Source of the DNA: Parcubacteria group bacterium
GTDB taxonomy: Bacteria > Patescibacteriota > JAUYIX01
Assembly (NCBI GenBank): GCA_043799475.1
Contig: JAZDNR010000014.1
Location: forward strand, 1-39,378
Direction of reading: 5' to 3'
DNA: 39,378 nucleotides
Shown here: positions 1 through 19,922 of the stretch, one piece after another
Position numbering within the stretch: position 1 is the first letter of the stretch
Layout of the letters: every line of letters begins with the position of its first letter
Notes under the pieces: generated by a model
The model's database searches: none
Told to the model about the DNA's origin: nothing
The model's input: the letters and a program-made list of their open reading frames with translations, nothing else
Made by a program: the position numbers and the translations under genes

Positions 1-23
1 AGAGTGCCCGAGTCAAGCTCGGG
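1..23 (-). repeat. Repeat module R0 (truncated by window edge)
   Basis: + sense: box remnant AGAGTG, then hairpin CCCGAG-tcaag-CTCGGG (7-23), followed by CCGAAAC. Confidence 0.5.
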
Positions 24-63
24 CCGAAACTTGAATGAAATTTGCATGGCATTACAACACTGA

Positions 64-108
64 ACTTCAAGCTCTTGCGAGCGGCCCGAACGCCCCGGGC
101 GGTCGGGC
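64..108 (-). repeat. Repeat module R1
   Basis: + sense: box ACTTCAAGCTCTTGCGAGCG (64-83; small hairpin GCTC-ttgc-GAGC), then hairpin GCCCGAACGCC-ccg-GGCGGTCGGGC (84-108), then TCAGAAC. Confidence 0.7.
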
Positions 109-153
109 TCAGAACTCAGATGCAGGACACATCGCCACAGCAAACGGTGCTTG

Positions 154-194
154 AGTGTAAGCCTTGTGGGCGCCCGACCGTAATGACGGTCAGG
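154..194 (-). repeat. Repeat module R2
   Basis: + sense: box AGTGTAAGCCTTGTGGGCG (154-172; GCCT-tgt-GGGC, a paired change relative to GCTC/GAGC), then CCCGACCGT-aatg-ACGGTCAGG (173-194), then CCGTTAC. Confidence 0.7.
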
Positions 195-264
195 CCGTTA
201 CAATGCACAAATCGACCTTATCGAAGTCAGCTGCGCTTGACTACAGGTTCGTAAAGAACCGCAG

Positions 265-292
265 AGGTTAGCAGCTCCGTTGGATTTGTCAA
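265..292 (-). promoter_or_regulatory. Sigma70-like promoter of TU1
   Basis: Minus strand: TTGACA (292-287), 16-nt spacer, TAACCT (270-265), followed by ctGCGGTTCTTT. The -35 directly abuts the T-tract of terminator 294-327. Confidence 0.6.
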
Positions 293-293
293 T

Positions 294-327
294 AAAAAAG
301 CCCGAACACCTTGAGAGATGTTCGGGC
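294..327 (-). terminator. Intrinsic terminator of TU2
   Basis: Minus strand: hairpin GCCCGAACA..TGTTCGGGC (300-327) followed by T6 (294-299). It differs by 1 nt from the terminator at 2101-2135. Confidence 0.75.
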
Positions 328-371
328 CTGGGCCATAGCCTACCTGAGGCCACCTTACTTGACCCTACCCT

Positions 372-422
372 AGTGCAATCTCAAGTTCTCACTTGAGCGC
401 CCGGTCGGGTTGTCCGGCCGGG
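372..422 (-). repeat. Repeat module R3
   Basis: + sense: box AGTGCAATCTCAAGTTCTCACTTGAGCG (372-399; CTCAAG-ttctca-CTTGAG), then CCCGGTCGG-gttgt-CCGGCCGGG (400-422), then CCGATAG. Confidence 0.65.
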
Positions 423-467
423 CCGATAGCATAGTGTACGCCACCCCACACAAGTCTGCGTGACTTC

Positions 468-509
468 AGTTCATACTCTTATGAGCGGGCCGAACACAAG
501 TGCTCGGCC
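468..509 (-). repeat. Repeat module R4
   Basis: + sense: box AGTTCATACTCTTATGAGCG (468-487; TCATA-ctct-TATGA), then GGCCGA..TCGGCC hairpin (488-509), then CCGAAAT. Confidence 0.65.
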
Positions 510-554
510 CCGAAATCTAGGTTTGCCGTAATCAAGAGGGCCTGGCGAAACTCA

Positions 555-591
555 AGTGCATTCTCTTGCGAGCGCCCGAGCATAGCTCGGG
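555..591 (-). repeat. Repeat module R5
   Basis: + sense: box AGTGCATTCTCTTGCGAGCG (555-574), then CCCGAGC-ata-GCTCGGG (575-591), then CAGATAC. Confidence 0.65.
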
Positions 592-636
592 CAGATACCT
601 TAGTGGAGTGTAACTCACGCCACTCAACCCCAGCGT

Positions 637-683
637 AGTGCATACCCTTTTGAGCGCCGAGCGCAGCCATGGCGGCCGGCCGG
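637..683 (-). repeat. Repeat module R6 (second hairpin degenerate)
   Basis: + sense: box AGTGCATACCCTTTTGAGCG (637-656), followed by a GC-rich palindromic run (657-683) instead of a clean hairpin. Confidence 0.45.
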
Positions 684-749
684 AAATATGCCCGAGCCGA
701 CACAAACATGCCGAGCACTACCTGACCAAATGTTCTTAAGGAACTCGGA

Positions 750-778
750 AGCATAAACGGCATTACCGCGCCTGTCAA
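750..778 (-). promoter_or_regulatory. Sigma70-like promoter of TU2
   Basis: Minus strand: TTGACA (778-773), 17-nt spacer, TATGCT (755-750), then tCCGAGTTCCTT. Confidence 0.6.
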
Positions 779-783
779 TAAAA

Positions 784-2099
784 TGTCCTGTAAAAGCTAG
801 ATTGTCAGGGCTCGGTAAAAGCAAGAATGTCAGGGTGTTATTAATCCTTAAATCTCACCCATGGCAACTAAGCAAACACAAAAACCGGACTACCTCTATA
901 GAGAAGAGGTAATCCGTCTCTGGCAGCGCAAACAGATCCCAATGCAGCGAGCACAAGAGTTACTGGATTGTAGCGAGCGCCATGTCTATCGGCTACAAGA
1001 CATGCTCGAGCAGCGCGGCACGTTGCGCTACCAATCACATCCTGCCTGGAACCGTACTCCGGCAGACTTGGAAGAAATCGTCTGTCGTAAAATTCGTGAG
1101 AATCCAGTCCGTAAAAACCAACACATAGCTGACCTGCTCGCAGAAGATGGTTTTGCGACTAACCGTGCCACGGTCCGTAATATCCGGATCCGCAATCATC
1201 TTAGGCAGGACCAGATCACACGGACAGCCTATGAGCGCTTTGAGCGTGAGCGAGTTGGTGAGTTGATCATGCAAGACACCTCTACCCATCACTGGGTAGC
1301 GGAATTACCAAAGCTCAAGCTCATCGCAAACCTGGATGATCACTCCCGGCTCATTCCCTTTGCACGCTTCTTTTGGCATGACGGCACGTGGCAGAATATG
1401 CTCGCGATCCGCTCAGTACTCGAGCGGTATGGCTTATTTGAGACCTTTTTTGTCGATCGGGCAGGACATTTCTCCGGACAAGATCGGTTGCTTATGGCCT
1501 CCTCGCGTATCACTCGAGGCGAAGATGAGCGCGTCCAAATTCCGCGAGCGCTCGCCGAGGCGCAGGTTACCTTATCTAAGGCGACTGCCTATCATCCTGA
1601 GTCTAAGGGCAAGATCGAGCGCTGGTTTGGGTTTGCACAAGGTCGCTTGCCCCACGATCTGCATGCGAGCACTCTTGCGGCTGCCAATACCCAACTAGCC
1701 GCCTGGGTCAGGTGGTACAACACGAAGCATATTAATGCTGAGACGAAGCAAATTCCCCTGGTACGCTTCCGTCAGGCGATGCGTGAGGGACGTAGTGCTT
1801 TTGCTCCGCTTAAACCACGCTTACCACTCGACGATATCTTCGCCTTTAGGGCAGAGCGCTTGGTCCGTAAAGACAACACCTTCTCCTATGGTGGCAAGAC
1901 GTACCACTTACAGCACGTGGGCGGTGAGCTAATGTATAAAACCTGCGAGCTACGCATCCGGCCAACTGCAATCCGCGTGTGGTACCGTGGCAATTACATT
2001 ACGTCCGTCCCATTCCAAGGACCCTTTGACCGCCCGATCGACTAACACTACTGACATCAAGCTTTTACAAAAGACTGACATTCTAGCGTTTACGTAACA
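784..2099 (+). mobile_element. IS481-family insertion sequence (about 1.3 kb)
   Basis: Terminal inverted repeats: TGTCCTGTAAAAGCTAGATTGTCAG (784-808) against the reverse complement of 2075-2099, TGTTACGTAAACGCTAGAATGTCAG (20/25 identical). A second subterminal copy lies at each end (814-833; 2051-2069). Direct repeat TAAAA flanks both sides (779-783, 2100-2104). There is a single DDE transposase ORF. Confidence 0.8.
861..2045 (+). CDS. IS481-family DDE transposase (N-terminal HTH plus rve integrase core)
   Basis: 394-aa ORF. rve-like catalytic region: DTSTHHW ... FFVDRAGHF ... HPESKGKIERWF. The N-terminal region is HTH-like. It is enclosed by the inverted repeats. Confidence 0.85.
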   Translation: MATKQTQKPDYLYREEVIRLWQRKQIPMQRAQELLDCSERHVYRLQDMLEQRGTLRYQSHPAWNRTPADLEEIVCRKIRENPVRKNQHIADLLAEDGFATNRATVRNIRIRNHLRQDQITRTAYERFERERVGELIMQDTSTHHWVAELPKLKLIANLDDHSRLIPFARFFWHDGTWQNMLAIRSVLERYGLFETFFVDRAGHFSGQDRLLMASSRITRGEDERVQIPRALAEAQVTLSKATAYHPESKGKIERWFGFAQGRLPHDLHASTLAAANTQLAAWVRWYNTKHINAETKQIPLVRFRQAMREGRSAFAPLKPRLPLDDIFAFRAERLVRKDNTFSYGGKTYHLQHVGGELMYKTCELRIRPTAIRVWYRGNYITSVPFQGPFDRPID

Positions 2100-2100
2100 T

Positions 2101-2135
2101 AAAAAAAGCCCGAACACCATGAGAGATGTTCGGGC
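2101..2135 (-). terminator. Intrinsic terminator of the helicase gene
   Basis: Minus strand: hairpin GCCCGAACA..TGTTCGGGC (2108-2135) followed by T7 (2101-2107), 76 nt downstream of the stop codon. Confidence 0.75.
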
Positions 2136-2210
2136 GAGCACTGGACCTGACGCGGTTGTGCAGCACGCTACGTCAGCGCGCTATGGTACGCAGTACCGCA
2201 ATCTCAAAAC

Positions 2211-4058
2211 CTACTTGGCCTTGAGCATCTTGATCGTCTCGGTCACCGCCTCGTCCATGCTCCGCAGAGGGAACATATACGAAGGCTTGAGCCACTCCGG
2301 CAACGCGCCGAGGAGGAACCGATGAAACACGCGGCTCACGAAGATCGTGACGCCCAGGTCCTCGCCCGATCGGATGTTCCGACCGCGGACCTGCAACGCC
2401 TCGTTCATCGCGCGCCACTGCCAACGAGCCCAGGCGCCGTTCTTGCTAAAGCGTCGCACCTCAAACTGCGCCTCGGGTGAGTCCAACGGCGGATAGCCCG
2501 GCCGCAGAAAGAAGATGCATGGCGCGATCTGTCGCGGCAAGTCGACTCCCTGTCCGTACTGCGCCGAGGTCCCGATGAGTACAGTTCCGAAGCCGCTCTT
2601 GAATTGTTCCGCCACCTGTCGTGCCGGCACACCCTCTCCGAGTGCACCGTAAGTGATGGCATCCAGCTCAATGTCCCGGGCGGCGTGTTCCATAAAGAAC
2701 TTGCGCTCCGTCTCAGACTGAACCACGACGAGCGACCGGTTGCCGGCCTCTCCCATCTCCTTGGCTGCCTTGGCGATCATGCGCAGTGCCTTGTGCACCG
2801 CCCACTTTCGTTTGTCGGGCAGCTTGTCGGAGGTGTTGGGTCCGTCGCGCAACAAGTAGACCCGGGTGTTCTCCGACGGAAATGGCGAGCCCAACTGGAC
2901 AAAATGTCCCTTGAGTCCCGTCTCGTAGCCGAGAATTGCCGGATCGCCGACCGTCGCCGAGTAGGCGATGAACTTCTTGCCCACTGCCTTCTTGATGAGC
3001 GGAGCCACGTAGTATGGCTTGATCACCAGGAAGTAGCGCGCCTTCTTCTTGGTCCCCTTGAATCCTACGTCGTTCTTCTGGAAGTAACTACACACGACGT
3101 AGTTGAGCGGGTTGTAGATCTCATTCTCCAAAGAGAACTCGAGGGACTTGATCATCCGCGGAATGCCGCGGGTCAAGTTCTCGAGGGTCTTGATGGTCTC
3201 ACGGTCGCCCACTGGATCGAGCTTGCCTGACGCGATCGCGGAGCGTACATGCCCTTCGATCTTGTCAGCGTCAAACTTGGCCAGCATCGCGATCATGATC
3301 TCCACCTCTGTGTCTTGCACCAGTGCTGGTTTGGACGACGGATGTCTACGACAGATCTGGACCAGTAGCCGGCGGAACTCATTGAGGAGCTTGGCCTGCT
3401 TGCGGTCGAACTGACGCAGGACGTAGGCGCACTTGGTAAGATGGAAGTCTGTGACGGTGTACTCGAAGATGCGCCGTGCGATCGACGCCAGCTGATGCAC
3501 TTCGTCCACTACTACGAGGGAGGGGTCAAGAGCACGCCAGCGGTGATCGAACGTCCTGTTCATCAAGAAGAACGCTGTGGTACAACCGATGATGGCCTTG
3601 GCCGCCTCCGCCTCCCTACGTAAACGAAACTTGTTCCAGAGGTAGGCGCAGGGAGTTACGCCCGGCTCCTGAGTCATGCCAGTTTCCTGGTCCACACGGT
3701 GCGGGCAGTCGAGCGAATAGCAGGGAGACTCCTGGGCGTCGATGTTGGGGACACCCCGATCCTCATAGTAGAGGCAGGGGTTATCGGACCGCCCAGTGAG
3801 CGGCTCGAGTTGCGGGTGCATGGCGACGAGCTGGCCGACCAACTGCTTGGTGGGAGTCGTATAGAAGTTGGGACCAAGACTGTTGGCTTGGCAGGCGAGC
3901 AGGCCGGTCACGCCGGCAACGGTTTTGCCGGTGCCCGGTGGGCCCTCGAGGATGACTGAGTTGTACTGGCTGAACGGATCGATCATCTGATTCTGTTGCG
4001 GACGCTTTTCGGCAAACGGAAAACTCACCTCGAGCGTCTTTTTGTCCGAGATAGCCAT
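2211..4058 (-). CDS. XPD/Rad3/DinG-family SF2 helicase with a four-cysteine putative 4Fe-4S insert
   Basis: 615 aa. Walker A GPPGTGKT, motif II VVDEVH, SAT, GTSAQYGQGVDLP and QVRGRNIRSGEDLG. Four Cys lie between motifs I and II (NPC..SPCYSLDC..TPC). RBS AAAGGAG is 4 nt before the ATG. Confidence 0.85.
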   Translation of the reverse strand: MAISDKKTLEVSFPFAEKRPQQNQMIDPFSQYNSVILEGPPGTGKTVAGVTGLLACQANSLGPNFYTTPTKQLVGQLVAMHPQLEPLTGRSDNPCLYYEDRGVPNIDAQESPCYSLDCPHRVDQETGMTQEPGVTPCAYLWNKFRLRREAEAAKAIIGCTTAFFLMNRTFDHRWRALDPSLVVVDEVHQLASIARRIFEYTVTDFHLTKCAYVLRQFDRKQAKLLNEFRRLLVQICRRHPSSKPALVQDTEVEIMIAMLAKFDADKIEGHVRSAIASGKLDPVGDRETIKTLENLTRGIPRMIKSLEFSLENEIYNPLNYVVCSYFQKNDVGFKGTKKKARYFLVIKPYYVAPLIKKAVGKKFIAYSATVGDPAILGYETGLKGHFVQLGSPFPSENTRVYLLRDGPNTSDKLPDKRKWAVHKALRMIAKAAKEMGEAGNRSLVVVQSETERKFFMEHAARDIELDAITYGALGEGVPARQVAEQFKSGFGTVLIGTSAQYGQGVDLPRQIAPCIFFLRPGYPPLDSPEAQFEVRRFSKNGAWARWQWRAMNEALQVRGRNIRSGEDLGVTIFVSRVFHRFLLGALPEWLKPSYMFPLRSMDEAVTETIKMLKAK

Positions 4059-4150
4059 GGTTCTCCTTTCTTGGCTGTGGTTTGCAGCCTAGGTTCAGAT
4101 TGACAACGAGCGCGTCTTGAGCGGATTTCAAGTCGTTTCAAGAACCGCGC

Positions 4151-4179
4151 AGCCTAGTCGAAGTGTGCAATTTTGTCAA
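4151..4179 (-). promoter_or_regulatory. Sigma70-like promoter of the helicase gene
   Basis: Minus strand: TTGACA (4179-4174), 17-nt spacer, TAGGCT (4156-4151), then gcGCGGTTCTTG. The predicted 5' UTR is about 86 nt. Confidence 0.65.
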
Positions 4180-4182
4180 TAT

Positions 4183-4212
4183 AAAAAGGGGAGCAGATGT
4201 TCTCTGTTCCCC
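4183..4212 (-). terminator. Intrinsic terminator of TU3
   Basis: Minus strand: hairpin GGGGAACAGA..TCTGCTCCCC (4188-4212) followed by TTTTT, then directly ATATTGACA (the next -35). Confidence 0.65.
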
Positions 4213-4256
4213 CGGTACTGCGTCCTAACGTATTCGACTGTGAGATGGCGTGCTAA

Positions 4257-4299
4257 ACCTTAAGCTCTTACGAGCATGGAGAACGATTACTCGTTCTCC
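4257..4299 (-). repeat. Repeat module R7
   Basis: + sense: box ACCTTAAGCTCTTACGAGCA (4257-4276; GCTC-ttac-GAGC), then GGAGAACGA-ttac-TCGTTCTCC (4278-4299), then CCTGGGC. Confidence 0.7.
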
Positions 4300-4359
4300 C
4301 CTGGGCTGTACTCGAGTTGAATGCGCCTTAGAAAACTCTGCGACAACTCGCTTAACTTT

Positions 4360-4406
4360 ACTGCAAGCTCTTGTGGAGCGGGAGGCGCCACGACCGAGAC
4401 GCCTCC
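4360..4406 (-). repeat. Repeat module R8
   Basis: + sense: box ACTGCAAGCTCTTGTGGAGCG (4360-4380; GCTC-ttgtg-GAGC), then GGAGGCG-12 nt loop-CGCCTCC (4381-4406). Confidence 0.7.
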
Positions 4407-4461
4407 TCGCGACATTAAAGAACTTGAGAATACGACGTCTGACCCAACTTATGAGAACCGA

Positions 4462-4502
4462 AGTTCAAGCTCCATTGAGAGCGCGGGGGCAACGAACCCC
4501 CG
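4462..4502 (-). repeat. Repeat module R9
   Basis: + sense: box AGTTCAAGCTCCATTGAGAGCG (4462-4483; GCTC-cattga-GAGC), then CGGGGG-caacgaa-CCCCCG (4484-4502). Confidence 0.7.
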
Positions 4503-4577
4503 CAGGTCAACTCTGCGTGGGTTCGCGCTGCGGCGAAATGCTGCTGTACACCCTGGTACATGTCTAAAGGACCAAAT

Positions 4578-4605
4578 AAGATAGCATCTATCGCATTAAA
4601 GTCAA
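4578..4605 (-). promoter_or_regulatory. Sigma70-like promoter of TU3
   Basis: Minus strand: TTGACT (4605-4600, overlapping the T-tract of the upstream terminator), 16-nt spacer, TATCTT (4583-4578), then atTTGGTCCTTT. Confidence 0.5.
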
Positions 4606-4635
4606 AAAAGAGAGGAGCAGAACGACATCTGCTCC
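4604..4635 (-). terminator. Intrinsic terminator of TU4b
   Basis: Minus strand: hairpin GGAGCAGA-tgtcgt-TCTGCTCC (4614-4635), then TCTC and T6 (4604-4609). Confidence 0.65.
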
Positions 4636-4791
4636 CCGAGTACTGCGCGACACGACTGCACAGCTTTGTACGCCCTGCCCCAGTGCAAGCTCTTATGGAG
4701 CGGGAGAACAAATTTGTTCTCCCCGTTACTCGGACTTGCAAAACGGCGCCTTACGCGAAAGCACCGTGCCTAAGAACATGTCCACGAGGGA
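4636..4791 (-). ncRNA. Non-coding unit TU4b (single module R10)
   Basis: Promoter 4798-4825. About 69 nt of leader, then module R10, a 46-nt unique segment and terminator 4604-4635. Confidence 0.5.
4682..4722 (-). repeat. Repeat module R10
   Basis: + sense: box AGTGCAAGCTCTTATGGAGCG (4682-4702; GCTC-ttatg-GAGC), then GGAGAACA-aatt-TGTTCTCC (4703-4722), then CCGTTAC. Confidence 0.7.
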
Positions 4792-4797
4792 CCAGAG

Positions 4798-4825
4798 AGA
4801 CTAGCACACCATCAAAAAAGTTCAA
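4798..4825 (-). promoter_or_regulatory. Weaker member of the same promoter family (TU4b)
   Basis: Minus strand: TTGAAC (4825-4820), 16-nt spacer, TAGTCT (4803-4798), then ctCTGGTCCCTC. Confidence 0.4.
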
Positions 4826-4826
4826 G

Positions 4827-4971
4827 ATAAAAGTGCGGGAGCAAATAGATCTCTGCCCCCGCCCACACCCGACCGTAGTGGCCCGCAAATTACCGAAGCC
4901 TTCTGTGGCCCACCCCGGTGAACGACACCCCACCTCATATCCCACAAGGGACTTTTACATCCATTGGCGAA
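4827..4971 (-). ncRNA. Non-coding unit TU4a (one degenerate module, weak terminator)
   Basis: Promoter 4978-5006. A hairpin at 4837-4860 is followed on the minus strand by GCACTTTTATCTT. No RBS-preceded ORF. Confidence 0.35.
4891..4920 (-). repeat. Possible degenerate 15th repeat module
   Basis: + sense: TACCGAAGCCTTCTGTGGC resembles the R2 box GTGTAAGCCTTGTGGGCG (GCC-ttctgt-GGC). It is followed only by a weak CACC/GGTG pairing. Confidence 0.25.
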
Positions 4972-4977
4972 CCGTGC

Positions 4978-5006
4978 AGGCTAATGTACGTTGGTCGATC
5001 GGTCAA
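4978..5006 (-). promoter_or_regulatory. Sigma70-like promoter of TU4a
   Basis: Minus strand: TTGACC (5006-5001), 17-nt spacer, TAGCCT (4983-4978), then gCACGGTTCGCC. The -35 abuts the T-tract of terminator 5008-5042. Confidence 0.6.
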
Positions 5007-5007
5007 T

Positions 5008-5042
5008 AAAAAAGGCGGTTCTCATTGCAAATGAGAACCGCC
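5008..5042 (-). terminator. Intrinsic terminator of TU5
   Basis: Minus strand: 13-bp hairpin GGCGGTTCTCATT-tgc-AATGAGAACCGCC (5014-5042) followed by T6 (5008-5013). Confidence 0.8.
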
Positions 5043-5325
5043 GCTGCCTGGCCCTACGCTAGAGGACACCACTGAACCTCTGACTACCCCACTGTAGTAC
5101 AAACCCATTACGGCGGGCGGTCCTAAGGTGAGACCGCCCTCGTCACCTTAGCGGGCAGGACTCAACGCAACGTCAGTTCAAGACCTTACGGTCGCGGGCA
5201 GTCCCGGATGAACCACCCGCCGGCACTGTATTTGACTCAGAACCGCCAAACGGAACTTGACTGTAAGCTTTTGCGAGCGAGCCCCCATTGAGAGGGCTCC
5301 GACACCACAGTTTGATTAGGAACAG
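5043..5325 (-). ncRNA. Longer non-coding unit TU5 (module R11 near the 5' end plus about 217 nt of structured RNA)
   Basis: Lies between the terminator of the 235-aa gene (5366-5397) and terminator 5008-5042. The 5' end is uncertain because no good promoter was found. It contains mutually complementary segments at 5115-5151. Confidence 0.4.
5260..5299 (-). repeat. Repeat module R11
   Basis: + sense: box ACTGTAAGCTTTTGCGAGCG (5260-5279; GCTT-ttgc-GAGC with a T-G pair), then GAGCCC-9 nt loop-GGGCTC (5279-5299). Confidence 0.65.
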
Positions 5326-5365
5326 TGAAACTAACCGGACACAACCTCAGACCTTTTGGGCAAAG

Positions 5366-5397
5366 AAAAAGGGGCAGTCTCAGAATGAGCCTGCCCC
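5366..5397 (-). terminator. Intrinsic terminator of the 235-aa protein gene
   Basis: Minus strand: hairpin GGGGCAG..CTGCCCC (5371-5397) followed by TTTTTCTTTG, 43 nt after the stop codon. Confidence 0.7.
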
Positions 5398-5439
5398 CGA
5401 CGAACGATCAGACGTGACGAAGATGAGATGACGAGATGG

Positions 5440-6147
5440 TTACGCCGTGGCCTCCGCCAGAGGTGCGGTGTTGAGGAGACGGTTGTACTCCTCCCACTCC
5501 TCGAGCTTGGCTGGACGCAGCTCATCAACCTCGTAAGTGCCGTAATCGCCACCGCAGTTCGGGCGAAAGGGCCCGAAACCGCCGAGACGCCCGGCCTCCA
5601 TGAGGATGTCGCAGATCTTCTCGAACGACGTGTAGTTCACGTCGAGATCTGCGAATCCGTCGACCACCCAACTCTCAGGAAAGAGCGGGCGCACGATAGG
5701 ACAGGGCTGACCCTTGCCCATGGAGTTCTTCAATAACCCCTGCTTGAGGTCTGGCTCCCAGGGCGTCGGCCAACCAGCGGGGGTCGGTGCCGGGGTGAAG
5801 CGGAAGTACTTGCCCTTGAGACGGAGGAAGGCGGGTAGGCGTGTCGCATTCGTCGCGCTGGTGAACTTCGCCTTGCCGTCAAACTTGACCTCCTTACCGC
5901 CCTGACGGAAGCTGGCCCAGACCCAGTCCTTGGGAATGACGAACAACGACGAGACCGGATGCAGGATGACCTTCTTGGCGCACCTCTCGCGCAGTGGCGT
6001 GACAGTGTCCTTCTGGCCCTTCTTCTTGTCGCTGAAGAAGGTATCCCAGATGTCCTGCGTGCGGTGGGGATCCTCGTAGATCGGCATGAGGCCGATGAGG
6101 CGGAAGTAGTGAAGCACCCAGTTTGTCCTTTTGCTGCCGATAGGCAT
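5440..6147 (-). CDS. Hypothetical 235-aa protein, paralog A of the island pair. The glycine-rich C-terminal motif is reminiscent of RAMP proteins.
   Basis: RBS GGAG is 6 nt before the ATG, and the gene has its own promoter and terminator. It aligns with the 194-aa protein at NWVLHYFRLIGL/GWTCHLFTLKGL and at IVRP..W..AGRLGGFGPFR..GDYGTYEVDELRP/IVRP..W..AGSLQGFGSYR..GYHGTFELEEFRP. Confidence 0.75.
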   Translation of the reverse strand: MPIGSKRTNWVLHYFRLIGLMPIYEDPHRTQDIWDTFFSDKKKGQKDTVTPLRERCAKKVILHPVSSLFVIPKDWVWASFRQGGKEVKFDGKAKFTSATNATRLPAFLRLKGKYFRFTPAPTPAGWPTPWEPDLKQGLLKNSMGKGQPCPIVRPLFPESWVVDGFADLDVNYTSFEKICDILMEAGRLGGFGPFRPNCGGDYGTYEVDELRPAKLEEWEEYNRLLNTAPLAEATA

Positions 6148-6246
6148 GACGAACTCCTTGTTCTAGCGTAGCGTTGTTTATGTCCATTTTGAGGGAACAG
6201 CTCACGACGGTGAGGTCTAGAGGCTATTCCGCCAACAAGACCCGCG

Positions 6247-6275
6247 AAGCTAGCAGATCGTCTTTTGGCTGTCAA
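6247..6275 (-). promoter_or_regulatory. Sigma70-like promoter of the 235-aa protein gene
   Basis: Minus strand: TTGACA (6275-6270), 17-nt spacer, TAGCTT (6252-6247), then cGCGGGTCTTGT. Confidence 0.65.
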
Positions 6276-6313
6276 GATTCTGTCCCGATCCTGTGCGATC
6301 CGTTGCGAACATT

Positions 6314-6348
6314 AAAAAATGAGCCAGCTTCTTGTTAGAAGCTGGCTC
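6314..6348 (-). terminator. Intrinsic terminator of the 194-aa protein gene
   Basis: Minus strand: 12-bp hairpin GAGCCAGCTTCT-aaca-AGAAGCTGGCTC (6321-6348) followed by T6 (6314-6319). Confidence 0.8.
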
Positions 6349-6426
6349 GTGCACCCTTGTGGATTACGCAGTAGGACACGACACGGTGCCTAGCTGAAGT
6401 GTAGACTGCTAGCGCAGCGAGTTCGA

Positions 6427-7011
6427 CTAGACCGGTCGGAACTCCTCGAGCTCAAAAGTGCCGTGATAGCCGTCCTTCTCAGCTCGATAGCTGCCGAAAC
6501 CCTGCAGCGACCCTGCGTCGTTGATCAGCTCGGTCACGAACTCCTCGACGTCCGGTGCTAGGCAGATGTGGCCCGAGGCCGTCCAGGGCAGTTCGATACT
6601 GGGCCGCACGATCCCGCACTTGGCCGACTTCTTGCTGTCGTACCCCTGGCGAATGTCAGCTCGCCAACCATTGCAGTTCAACTGGAGGCCCTGCCCGGAG
6701 AGGTGCAGGAGGTGACGTAAGCGCACGTACTTCTTGTTGCGTGTGTCATCCTTGGGCTTGATGGTGACGATGCGGCCGTCTGGTAGCACGCGACCCGCGG
6801 CTTGTGCGGCGAGAGCGGCCCAGAACATTTCGCGCGGGATGTGTGGATTGCCCTGATGGTCGGCGTGCAGCTTGTGACGCGCAAGGTCCTCGGGCTCGTC
6901 GCCGCGCTGGTAGCCCGGCGCACCCTTCTTTTGCATGAGGATGCTCTCGAGTCCCTTGAGGGTGAACAAGTGACACGTCCAGCCAGGTGGACGAGGCTTG
7001 AGGTGGTTCAT
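6427..7011 (-). CDS. Hypothetical 194-aa protein, paralog B of the island pair
   Basis: RBS AAAGGAG is upstream of the ATG, and the gene has its own promoter and terminator. It shares N-terminal W..H.F.L.GL and C-terminal IVRP / GFG..R / G.(Y/H)GT(Y/F)E(V/L).E(L/F)RP motifs with the 235-aa protein. Confidence 0.75.
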   Translation of the reverse strand: MNHLKPRPPGWTCHLFTLKGLESILMQKKGAPGYQRGDEPEDLARHKLHADHQGNPHIPREMFWAALAAQAAGRVLPDGRIVTIKPKDDTRNKKYVRLRHLLHLSGQGLQLNCNGWRADIRQGYDSKKSAKCGIVRPSIELPWTASGHICLAPDVEEFVTELINDAGSLQGFGSYRAEKDGYHGTFELEEFRPV

Positions 7012-7115
7012 GAGTACATACTCCTTTCGGGAGTGGGTTGATGAACGAGTTTTTGAAACGTGATGTTGAGGTGCAGCATCTCTCAGAGCTTTTGTTCAGC
7101 CCAAAAAGACCGCGC

Positions 7116-7144
7116 AAGCTAGCACGGCTTAATCGCATTGTCAA
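7116..7144 (-). promoter_or_regulatory. Sigma70-like promoter of the 194-aa protein gene
   Basis: Minus strand: TTGACA (7144-7139), 17-nt spacer, TAGCTT (7121-7116), then gcGCGGTCTTTT. Confidence 0.65.
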
Positions 7145-7155
7145 CTCCCGCAACT

Positions 7156-7191
7156 AAAAAAGAGGGAGACGTAACTTTGTTCACGTCTCCC
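7156..7191 (-). terminator. Intrinsic terminator of TU6
   Basis: Minus strand: hairpin GGGAGACGT..ACGTCTCCC (7164-7191), then CT and T6 (7156-7161). Confidence 0.7.
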
Positions 7192-7236
7192 CATGGACAC
7201 CACATGACTACGCCACATCTCGCGCCACCCAACCTG

Positions 7237-7283
7237 ACTGTAAGCTTTTCTAGAGCGAGAGCAGTTCTCGGGTAGAACTGCTC
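7237..7283 (-). repeat. Repeat module R12
   Basis: + sense: box ACTGTAAGCTTTTCTAGAGCG (7237-7257; GCTT-ttcta-GAGC), then GAGCAGTTCT-cgggt-AGAACTGCTC (7259-7283). Confidence 0.7.
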
Positions 7284-7350
7284 AATCAGGGTCTGACTCG
7301 AAAACACTAGACGTAAGGACAGGTGAGTGGACGACACTCCGCCCGACCAA

Positions 7351-7390
7351 AGTACAAGCTCGAAAGAGCTGGGAGAACAGTTGTTCTCCC
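7351..7390 (-). repeat. Repeat module R13
   Basis: + sense: box AGTACAAGCTCGAAAGAGCT (7351-7370; AGCTC-gaaa-GAGCT, stem extended by a paired change), then GGGAGAAC-agtt-GTTCTCCC (7371-7390), then CTGGGCG. Confidence 0.7.
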
Positions 7391-7464
7391 CTGGGCGCCA
7401 CATTACTCTGAACTGGCACGCAACGGCATTGTGTACTTAAGAACAAGTCCTCGATGGACACGGC

Positions 7465-7493
7465 AAACTAACATATGATCTTGTAACTGAAAA
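7465..7493 (-). promoter_or_regulatory. Degenerate member of the island promoter family (TU6)
   Basis: Minus strand: TTTTCA (7493-7488), 17-nt spacer, TAGTTT (7470-7465), then gCCGTGTCCATC. Compare TAGCTTgcGCGGTCTT in the other promoters. Confidence 0.35.
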
Positions 7494-7502
7494 GGCTGCG
7501 TG

Positions 7503-19332: not shown

Positions 19333-19821
19333 TTAACGCTTTGCTTCGAGGGTCATTATGCGTTCCTCGTGTCGTGCAAGGGCTGAGCGATGTGCCGCAT
19401 GTTCGGCGTCATAGGTCTTGATTTTACTAATAACAAGATTGTCTACGCTTGTAATAAGCTTATCTATTTTTGACTCTGTACGTTTACCAGTTTCTTTAAC
19501 TTCAACCATGTCGTGTTCTAGGTTTATTAACCTGCCATCCATCTGCTCAAATCTTAAATCAATCTGCACAAATCTTTCATCAATCTTCTCAAACCTGGCA
19601 TCAACCTGCTCAAACCTGGCATCAACCTGCTCAAACCTGGCATCAACCTGCTCAAATCTTAAATCAATCTGCACAAATCTTTTATCAACCTTCTCAAGCC
19701 TTGCATCAATCTGCACAAATCTGGCATCAATCCGGCCGAACTTTTTATCGGTCTTTACGAAATATTTTTCGTGGCGATCAATCGCTGCTGCAATCCCTTG
19801 TAAAGTTGGCTTAGTTTTCAT
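19333..19821 (-). CDS. Hypothetical coiled-coil protein with about ten heptad repeats (x-h-D-x-R-F-x)
   Basis: 162 aa. Run RIDARFV QIDARLE KVDKRFV QIDLRFE QVDARFE x3 KIDERFV QIDLRFE QMDGRLI. Confidence 0.7.
   Translation of the reverse strand: MKTKPTLQGIAAAIDRHEKYFVKTDKKFGRIDARFVQIDARLEKVDKRFVQIDLRFEQVDARFEQVDARFEQVDARFEKIDERFVQIDLRFEQMDGRLINLEHDMVEVKETGKRTESKIDKLITSVDNLVISKIKTYDAEHAAHRSALARHEERIMTLEAKR
19588..19650 (-). repeat. Three perfect tandem 21-bp repeats inside the coiled-coil gene
   Basis: CTCAAACCTGGCATCAACCTG at 19588-19608, 19609-19629 and 19630-19650. Diverged copies flank them across about 19546-19755. Confidence 0.9.
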
Positions 19822-19922
19822 GGGTAGTTTTAGGTTAGCATATCTTGTAGACAGGGTAAGCCAGAGCGCTTAACAAAAGATTAACATTTGTCTAAGGGGA
19901 TCTAAAAAGGTGCACCAGTAGC

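Follow-up and report, generated by a model that had tools for sequence, protein, structure and literature searches.

Two probable Vipr paralogues beside an array of candidate vrRNAs and an XPD/DinG-type helicase in a Parcubacteria-labelled genome

The window analysed here is the whole contig JAZDNR010000014.1 (39,378 nt, positions 1 to 39,378 of the forward strand) of assembly GCA_043799475.1, a metagenome-assembled genome (MAG) labelled "Parcubacteria group bacterium". On its minus strand lie two neighbouring open reading frames (ORFs), vipr-A (5440..6147, 235 aa) and vipr-B (6427..7011, 194 aa), which are annotated as the hypothetical proteins V1895_00505 and V1895_00510. We interpret their products, here called A and B, as two diverged paralogues of the RAMP protein Vipr within a chromosomal, helicase-associated VIPR locus, and assign this reading a probability of roughly 0.88. 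VIPR as a kind of system has already been described in preprints of 2026, and the present locus is a new member of it. Read in this way, it is a clear cellular example of a helicase-linked VIPR with YNNNG repeats and has, with about 24 vrRNAs, an uncommonly large repertoire of guides. Two co-conserved RAMP paralogues beside a DinG-family helicase are its uncommon feature.

VIPR was introduced in two bioRxiv preprints of April-June 2026 (10.64898/2026.04.26.720920, 10.64898/2026.04.26.720927). As set out there, a system consists of Vipr, a RAMP of ~20 kDa with a single RRM, usually one accessory gene (vap), and RNAs of ~100 nt (vrRNAs) that carry 9-16 YNNGG pentamers and, behind them, a structured 3' tail. 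Each pentamer takes up one protomer as Vipr polymerises on the vrRNA; the protein sequesters GGY, while the NN bases read double-stranded DNA and every third base is skipped (10.64898/2026.04.26.720920,.720927). The preprints distinguish seven types, with nucleases or helicases in types III-V, and give NNNGG, YNNNG and NNNNG as variant repeats, the name "YNNNG" appearing in the Methods; the system of the phage SUSP1 is of type II and has YNNGG repeats (10.64898/2026.04.26.720920,.720927). According to the same source, cellular chromosomes hold 25.5% of VIPR loci, so that a viral or proviral location is typical and not obligatory, and Vipr forms a separate, early-branching RAMP clade that is proposed as the ancestor of CRISPR effectors (10.64898/2026.04.26.720920,.720927). 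Loci with two vipr genes are rare, because the 670 Vipr proteins counted there fall in 667 systems and 664 loci (10.64898/2026.04.26.720920,.720927).

Results

Family membership and predicted fold of A and B

The initial annotation of this DNA had described A and B as small minus-strand paralogues with shared N- and C-terminal motifs, and this description stands. BLASTP aligns the two over their C-terminal ~118 residues (E 6e-13, 29% identity), and in a global MAFFT alignment, which takes in the N-terminal W..H.F.L.GL motif, the identity is likewise 29%. The motifs C(P/G)IVRP, AG.L.GFG..R and G.(Y/H)GT(Y/F)E are all present in the two sequences, with IVRP at residues 151-154 of A and 134-137 of B and the loop rich in glycine, or G-loop, spanning G186-G203 in A and G167-G184 in B. 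This likeness is far above the chance level and, judged by sequence, A and B are true paralogues.

An exhaustive HMMER search with a profile of A and B (E <= 1e-3) returned 274 relatives, mostly 190-280 aa in length, with the consensus G..P.LM ... IGIP...L.A.L..AGR.VK ... W..D.RRG ... IVRP.F..W ... AG...GLG.FRP...G.FG.F.V. Against the family HMM, A scores E 3e-54 and B scores E 5e-39, and the positions that both share (IVRP, W, AG, G.G, R, G..G) are invariant or near-invariant columns of the 274-protein family. Word-indexed protein searches with A, with B or with a 97-sequence alignment recovered themselves or a handful of matches only. No Pfam, NCBIfam or PADLOC model, Cas profiles included, matches A or B, and Pfam gave no match among 69 aligned family members; 65 of these 69, and A as well, match phrog_4652, a PHROG family of unknown function. 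The link to Vipr comes from the 69-sequence family profile, which matches a single PDB sequence, 36pp_D ("SUSP1 Vipr protein"), with E 8.5e-13 over positions 13-202 of 221. PDB sequence searches with single sequences or with the two-sequence profile of A and B returned only noise.

AlphaFold2 models built with the family alignments have a pLDDT of 93.6 for A and 93.3 for B, with a pTM of 0.87 in both. Each model consists of one beta-alpha-beta-beta-alpha-beta ferredoxin-like RRM with a long beta-hairpin insertion, the thumb (residues 108-140 in A), and a loop rich in glycine that lies after helix 2 and before the last strand. Foldseek places both models closest to Csm3 (type III-A), Cmr4, type VII Cas7 and Cas7-11 in the PDB (probability 1.0, E 1e-7 to 1e-5, TM 0.45-0.62). 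In BFVD, a collection of predicted viral structures, the best matches are an uncharacterised protein of viral origin (E 3e-11) and a protein of a phage that bears the name "Cas system-associated RAMP superfamily protein". The initial annotation had proposed divergent RNA-binding RAMPs and had named structure prediction with Foldseek as one way to examine this; the confidently predicted RRM/RAMP folds, the Cas7-type matches and the path from the family profile to SUSP1 Vipr all favour that proposal.

The nucleotide contacts given for SUSP1 Vipr in the cryo-EM preprint were mapped onto A and B by alignment. R138 and W178, which hold G2 in SUSP1, would correspond to R153 and F194 in A and to R136 and Y175 in B. 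Of the residues that hold Y3, R179 would be matched by R195 in A and R176 in B, and the pair E71/M72 by D74/W75 and E61/M62, respectively. H17 and D177, which recognise G1, align with D26 and P193 in A and with Q27 and S174 in B. It seems, therefore, that the residues holding G2 and Y3 are kept and that the G1-recognising pair is replaced, a pattern that parallels the repeat logo described below, in which the G1 position is nearly free. The locus may in this respect offer a natural correlation between sequence and structure, in that the repeat has lost its first G and the proteins the G1-contact residues.

Candidate vrRNAs

The "non-coding" stretches of the minus strand at 1-860, 2046-2210, 4059-5439, 6148-6426 and 7012-7502 hold 24 candidate vrRNAs (v01-v24). 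The candidates v01-v03 (7163..7445) lie upstream of vipr-B, v01 and v02 being followed by the small hairpin and v03 by a terminator at 7192-7163, and v04 (6321..6409, terminator hairpin 6348-6321) lies in the vipr-B 3' region. The largest group, v05-v15 (4187..5345), stands between vipr-A and the helicase gene, with a weak pentamer tract in v12 and internal terminators, found by a terminator scan, at 5045-5011, 4862-4835, 4637-4612 and 4213-4187. Directly after the helicase stop codon follows v16 (2108..2181, terminator 2135-2108), and v17-v24 occupy 1..731, where the array is broken off by the end of the contig at base 1. All are read from the minus strand, on which the scan also found terminators to be enriched.

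In the units of these stretches, GCTC-N4/5-GAGC forms a small hairpin whose loop is mostly GNRA-like, and after it and a TTGMA junction come pentamers in fixed register. The tract measures ~41-71 nt and comprises 8-13 pentamers of the form [G/C]-Y-N-N-N. After every one of the 24 tracts comes a GC-rich hairpin of 7-15 bp and variable sequence (mean z -5.1 against shuffles). It is succeeded by the small hairpin of the next unit in 15 cases and by a T-run in eight, v24 being cut by the contig end; because of the T-run, these eight resemble intrinsic terminators. From this layout we infer that the "two-hairpin module" of the initial annotation is the vrRNA tail and unit boundary. By homology with described systems, the element read by the protein would be the pentanucleotide-repeat tract, and the two hairpins the tail that follows it.

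A plain period-5 Fourier scan of the whole window proved too noisy and was replaced by anchored logos and a scan scoring [G/C]Y. In the register-anchored logo (14 tracts, 10 pentamers each), phase 1 is G in 55% and C in 24%, phase 2 is T in 75% and C in 19%, phases 3-4 carry no information, and phase 5 is weakly A/G. Information at period 5 amounts to 1.46 bits, compared with 0.15 +/- 0.03 bits in 1000 shuffles, none of which reaches it, and to at most 0.49 bits at periods 3, 4, 6 and 7. Over the whole window, tracts with a [G/C]Y score of at least 15 occur only on the minus strand of 1-7500, as do all but one of the tracts that score 14.5. The repeat of the present locus is the "YNNNG" variant. 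Rfam at gathering thresholds finds one tRNA only in the window, and the RNA units therefore do not belong to a curated family.

A type III toxin-antitoxin RNA array and repetitive extragenic palindromes (REP/BIME) were also considered as identities for these units and ruled out on account of the ~100-nt diverged units, their restriction to this locus, the 5-nt code and the adjacent RAMP genes.

The tails fall into groups by location. Hairpins of the form GGGGAGAAC...GTTCTCCCC or similar occur in v01, v03, v10, v11, v14 and v15, near the genes, and GCCCGR...YCGGGC-like tails in v16 and v18-v24 (1-700 and 2108-2135). These groups could reflect the history of the array, or else two tail classes matched to the two paralogues. 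The terminator hairpins of v21 (294-327) and v16 (2102-2135) are 97% identical over 34 nt, AAAAAAGCCCGAACACC[T/A]TGAGAGATGTTCGGGC, and stand on either side of an insertion sequence; this points to a vrRNA tail that was duplicated not long ago, or to recombination inside the array.

Promoter-like sites were recognised by eye on the minus strand upstream of each of the three genes. TTGACA-N17-TAGCTT occurs at 7116..7144 before vipr-B, where it lies below the threshold of a consensus scan, and again at 6247..6275 before vipr-A, as part of the direct repeat D18; TTGACA-N17-TAGGCT lies at 4151..4179 before the helicase gene. All three are putative. The letters ATTGAC directly follow many of the vrRNA terminators, and terminator and next -35 box would thus be fused.

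The helicase and related loci

Downstream of the v05-v15 array, a gene at 2211..4058 on the minus strand encodes a helicase of 615 aa of the XPD/Rad3/DinG family of superfamily 2 (Pfam Helicase_C_2, DEAD). Its best PDB sequence match is archaeal XPD (E 3e-10), and its cysteines C95, C113, C118 and C137 are invariant among four aligned homologues. The best defence model is the PADLOC profile typeIV_DinG ("CAS-IV-A; associated"), matched over the full length with E 3e-40 and likewise best for four homologues. Canonical Csf4 models match one of four helicases tested, at ~1e-8, and NCBIfam gives no csf4 match for the helicase of the window.

Homologues that are 40-49% identical were found in two species-representative genomes and on 17 metagenome contigs; the viral contig collection yielded no relative of the helicase. 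In both genomes and on 14 of the contigs, an HMM scan detected a vipr gene on the strand of the helicase homologue and directly upstream of it; the upstream sequence of the remaining three contigs measures 1.3 kb or less. Across 12 related loci, 62 of 65 GTNNN tracts lie on the vipr strand and are mostly followed by hairpins of the GGGCAGGG...CCCTGCC type. These loci form a coherent helicase-linked VIPR clade, presumably one of the helicase-bearing types of the preprints, and the helicase is a probable VIPR accessory (vap) gene.

Two observations were made on individual loci. The helicase homologue of locus L003 (8981-10776) is split into two ORFs covering profile positions 2-244 and 257-611, and is intact in L002 (8995-10881) and L005, which are otherwise near-identical to it; one sample here differs by a frameshift or in its assembly. 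In L008 (1146-4619), a single vipr gene is followed by ~3.4 kb devoid of called genes with at least 15 GTNNN tracts on the gene strand, which is a very long vrRNA array, and no helicase was found on this contig. As to the source of the DNA, the contig of the window has a G+C content of ~54% and carries the Parcubacteria label, and "uncultured Gammaproteobacteria" is the label of the two closest genomes that bear the helicase; the taxonomy given for these MAGs may be unreliable.

Conservation of the paralogue pair

Among the loci examined, two vipr genes occur only in the present window and in one other lineage (L002/L003/L005), whose products measure 275 aa and 252 aa, the second matching the family by hhalign with E 8.5e-28. 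Compared with typical family members, A scores ~100 bits, and compared with B it scores 52 bits. B keeps all near-invariant family residues except the Pro of FRP.

An orthologue of B, P0003, is 58% identical and lies on a contig of 1.26 kb (L001). Downstream of it follow, in order, a vrRNA-like tract with terminator, a second such unit, a TTGACA-N17-TAGATT site, a 5' untranslated region that is 73% identical to that of vipr-A, and the start of an ORF (MAAIG..., compared with MPIGS... in A). This layout indicates that the order B-then-A is conserved. The promoter-like site of L001 (~1130-1160), which precedes the A-like ORF start, is near-identical to the sites of the window. A search of metagenomes for related loci with the B/P0003 pair as query found none. 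In a rough neighbor-joining tree, A and B fall into one clade of seven members together with the helicase-linked Vipr of L004, which is weak evidence because the distances are saturated.

Discussion

The resemblance of the locus to the VIPR of SUSP1 extends over several features. Both possess a RAMP of small size (~20-26 kDa) with one RRM, a thumb and a G-loop, in which the G2- and Y3-holding residues appear conserved, both have an adjacent accessory gene and neither a CRISPR array nor adaptation genes, and in both, long intergenic units of ~100 nt carry pentanucleotide repeats with two or three hypervariable positions and a structured 3' tail. The two also differ. The repeat is [G/C]-Y-N-N-N here and YNNGG in SUSP1, in keeping with the putative replacement of the G1 contacts H17 and D177; the accessory gene encodes a 615-aa XPD/DinG-type helicase instead of the DNA-binding Vap1; two diverged vipr genes and about 24 vrRNA genes stand against one and four, respectively. 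The vrRNA tail consists of a variable GC hairpin and a small GNRA-like hairpin, whereas that of SUSP1 is conserved and pseudoknotted, and the setting is the housekeeping chromosomal DNA of a Parcubacteria-labelled MAG instead of a phage.

Several results weigh against the interpretation as a VIPR locus with two Vipr proteins. The direct hhalign comparison of the A+B profile with SUSP1 Vipr gives E 1.3e-3 and a probability of only 18%, and single-sequence phmmer searches of the PDB with A or B find no match to Vipr; because this direct comparison is weak, the link to the solved Vipr is transitive and made at the profile level. The best-studied parallel is of another type, SUSP1 being type II with YNNGG repeats as described in the preprints, and the ends, processing sites and promoters of the vrRNAs in the window are predicted ones. 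Searches for guide targets gave none that convinced under models with one skipped or with no skipped nucleotide. NN-x gapped scans of viral contigs with the guides v08, v03 and v21 and with two guides of locus L018 had 0 matches; v16 and v02 had one match each, in which flanking dinucleotides agree in 1/4 and 0/4 cases, and since the flanks do not extend, we treat both as chance. Phase 5 is not tracked by the skipped bases of the v16 match, the one checked in this respect. A BLAST search of 50,697 phage records with the NNN codes concatenated from 21 guides gave no match.

If the locus works in the manner of SUSP1, each unit would be transcribed as a vrRNA of roughly 80-100 nt, along which Vipr protomers would polymerise, one per pentamer (10.64898/2026.04.26.720920,.720927). 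Thumb, G-loop and helix 1 would hold the conserved G-Y out of reach and expose the variable bases, by which double-stranded DNA would be read in a non-contiguous manner; the complex of Vipr and vrRNA could then silence or mark competing mobile elements, and the XPD/DinG-type helicase would act on the bound target (10.64898/2026.04.26.720920,.720927). The two-hairpin module would in this scheme serve as vrRNA 3' tail and unit boundary and not as the primary element read by the protein.

For the two paralogues, we lean towards filaments, separate or mixed, on vrRNAs of one and the same class. It is possible, but on balance unlikely, that two independent VIPR systems lie side by side, each with vrRNAs of its own and with one or neither tied to the helicase. 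Each vipr gene has its own promoter-like site and terminator, A and B share no more than 29% identity and A is nearer to other members than to B, the GC-hairpin groups are linked to location as described above, and adjacent systems do occur, as 667 systems are reported from 664 loci (10.64898/2026.04.26.720920,.720927). Against this, all three array segments have one and the same pentamer logo, small hairpin and TTGMA junction, and co-regulation is suggested by the TTGACA-N17-TAG..T common to the three promoter-like sites. The order B-then-A and similar intergenic elements are moreover kept in the relative with the 58%-identical B, and the rough tree unites A and B in one clade with a helicase-linked Vipr. 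A more far-reaching idea, which we hold to be improbable, is that A and B form one heteromeric effector on the vrRNA, one as backbone and the other capping the end or the hairpin tail, which recruits the DinG/XPD-type helicase and represents a living intermediate between single-RAMP VIPR and multi-RAMP Class 1 systems of the type IV kind. The step of duplication and specialisation that this implies is, in the text of the preprints, only postulated (10.64898/2026.04.26.720920,.720927). Linked with this idea is the possibility that YNNNG repeats are read with three bases each, which would be another code than the NN plus one skipped base of SUSP1. Should A and B turn out to be specialised subunits, the proposed route from VIPR to multi-subunit CRISPR effectors could be tested directly; if not, the analysis still gives two "hypothetical proteins" and a "non-coding" region of kilobase scale a useful annotation.

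Relationships to CRISPR-Cas components offer two further explanations. A and B share the RRM core, the beta-hairpin thumb and the G-rich loop before the last strand with the Cas7 subunits Csm3, Cmr4, type VII Cas7 and Cas7-11, but are only ~10-14% identical to them, match no Cas profile and occur with neither a crRNA (CRISPR RNA)/CRISPR array nor the partners Cas5, Cas8/Cas10 and Cas11; the local repeat has a period of 5 nt, whereas Class 1 effectors take 6 nt per protomer. The initial annotation had pointed to Cas6, and in this reading A and/or B would bind the two-hairpin module and cut array transcripts by means of an N-terminal His. Many units do lie head to tail with only one promoter-like site before and one terminator behind them, which calls for some processing, GC hairpin and small hairpin abut without a linker and could mark a cleavage site, and a C-terminal G-h-G...G-h-G loop, hairpin-forming repeats nearby and a His in strand beta-1 of both paralogues all recall Cas6. 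Cas6, however, has two RRM/ferredoxin domains and cleaves within CRISPR repeats, whereas the models of A and B have a single RRM and find their best structural matches in Cas7. Nor is the His a conserved catalytic residue: P0009 and the L004 protein, the A-like relatives that stand closest, have Tyr in its place, and it aligns with Asn5 of SUSP1 Vipr, not with the RNA-contacting His17. Most related vipr-helicase loci have one vipr gene and no small hairpin and still possess vrRNA arrays, and staggered arrays and hammerhead ribozymes are reported as other routes of vrRNA processing (10.64898/2026.04.26.720920,.720927). A Cas6-like role is accordingly very improbable, and on their models A and B are Cas7-like Vipr proteins, not Cas6-like processors. 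We give next to no credence to a degenerate or minimal type IV CRISPR-Cas system, in which A and B would be Csf2/Csf3 (Cas7/Cas5) beside CasDinG and a decayed array. Type IV-A systems also act mainly by interference without cleavage, two different RAMPs beside a DinG-like helicase resemble their gene content, and the PADLOC type IV profile is the best defence match of the helicase and of its four homologues. Yet a CRISPR array is lacking, tandem-repeat (TRF) and general repeat searches finding no regular direct repeats and the locus having pentamer tracts and variable hairpins instead; genes for Csf1/Cas8-like, Cas6/Csf5 and Cas11 subunits are absent, and A and B are both Cas7-like and neither Cas5-like. 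The helicase also stands apart from Csf4 in the model searches reported above, and its closest PDB sequences are XPD, to which it is nearer, and DinG.

Other features of the window

An insertion sequence occupies 815..2093 on the plus strand within the vrRNA region, between v16 and v17-v24, and is bounded by 35-nt imperfect inverted repeats (815-849 and 2059-2093). Its transposase (861-2045, plus strand) is of the ISNCY/IS481-like rve kind (Pfam rve_3; NCBIfam transpos_ISNCY_2, E 5e-47, and IS481, E 2e-25). A plus-strand ORF of 149 aa at 4560-5009, which matches no family and overlaps the vrRNA array in antisense, is probably not a gene, though automatic annotation could call it as one. The rest of the window is of housekeeping character (PrsW, CCA/poly(A) polymerase, HisRS, MraW, SufBD, ValRS), and the setting of the locus is chromosomal and not viral or proviral. 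Within two overlapping ORFs, 19333-19821 (minus strand) and 19418-19873 (plus strand), a 21-bp tandem repeat extends from 19536 to 19732 with 9.4 copies, 81% matches and the consensus CATCAATCTGCTCAAATCTTG; it may encode a 7-residue protein repeat.

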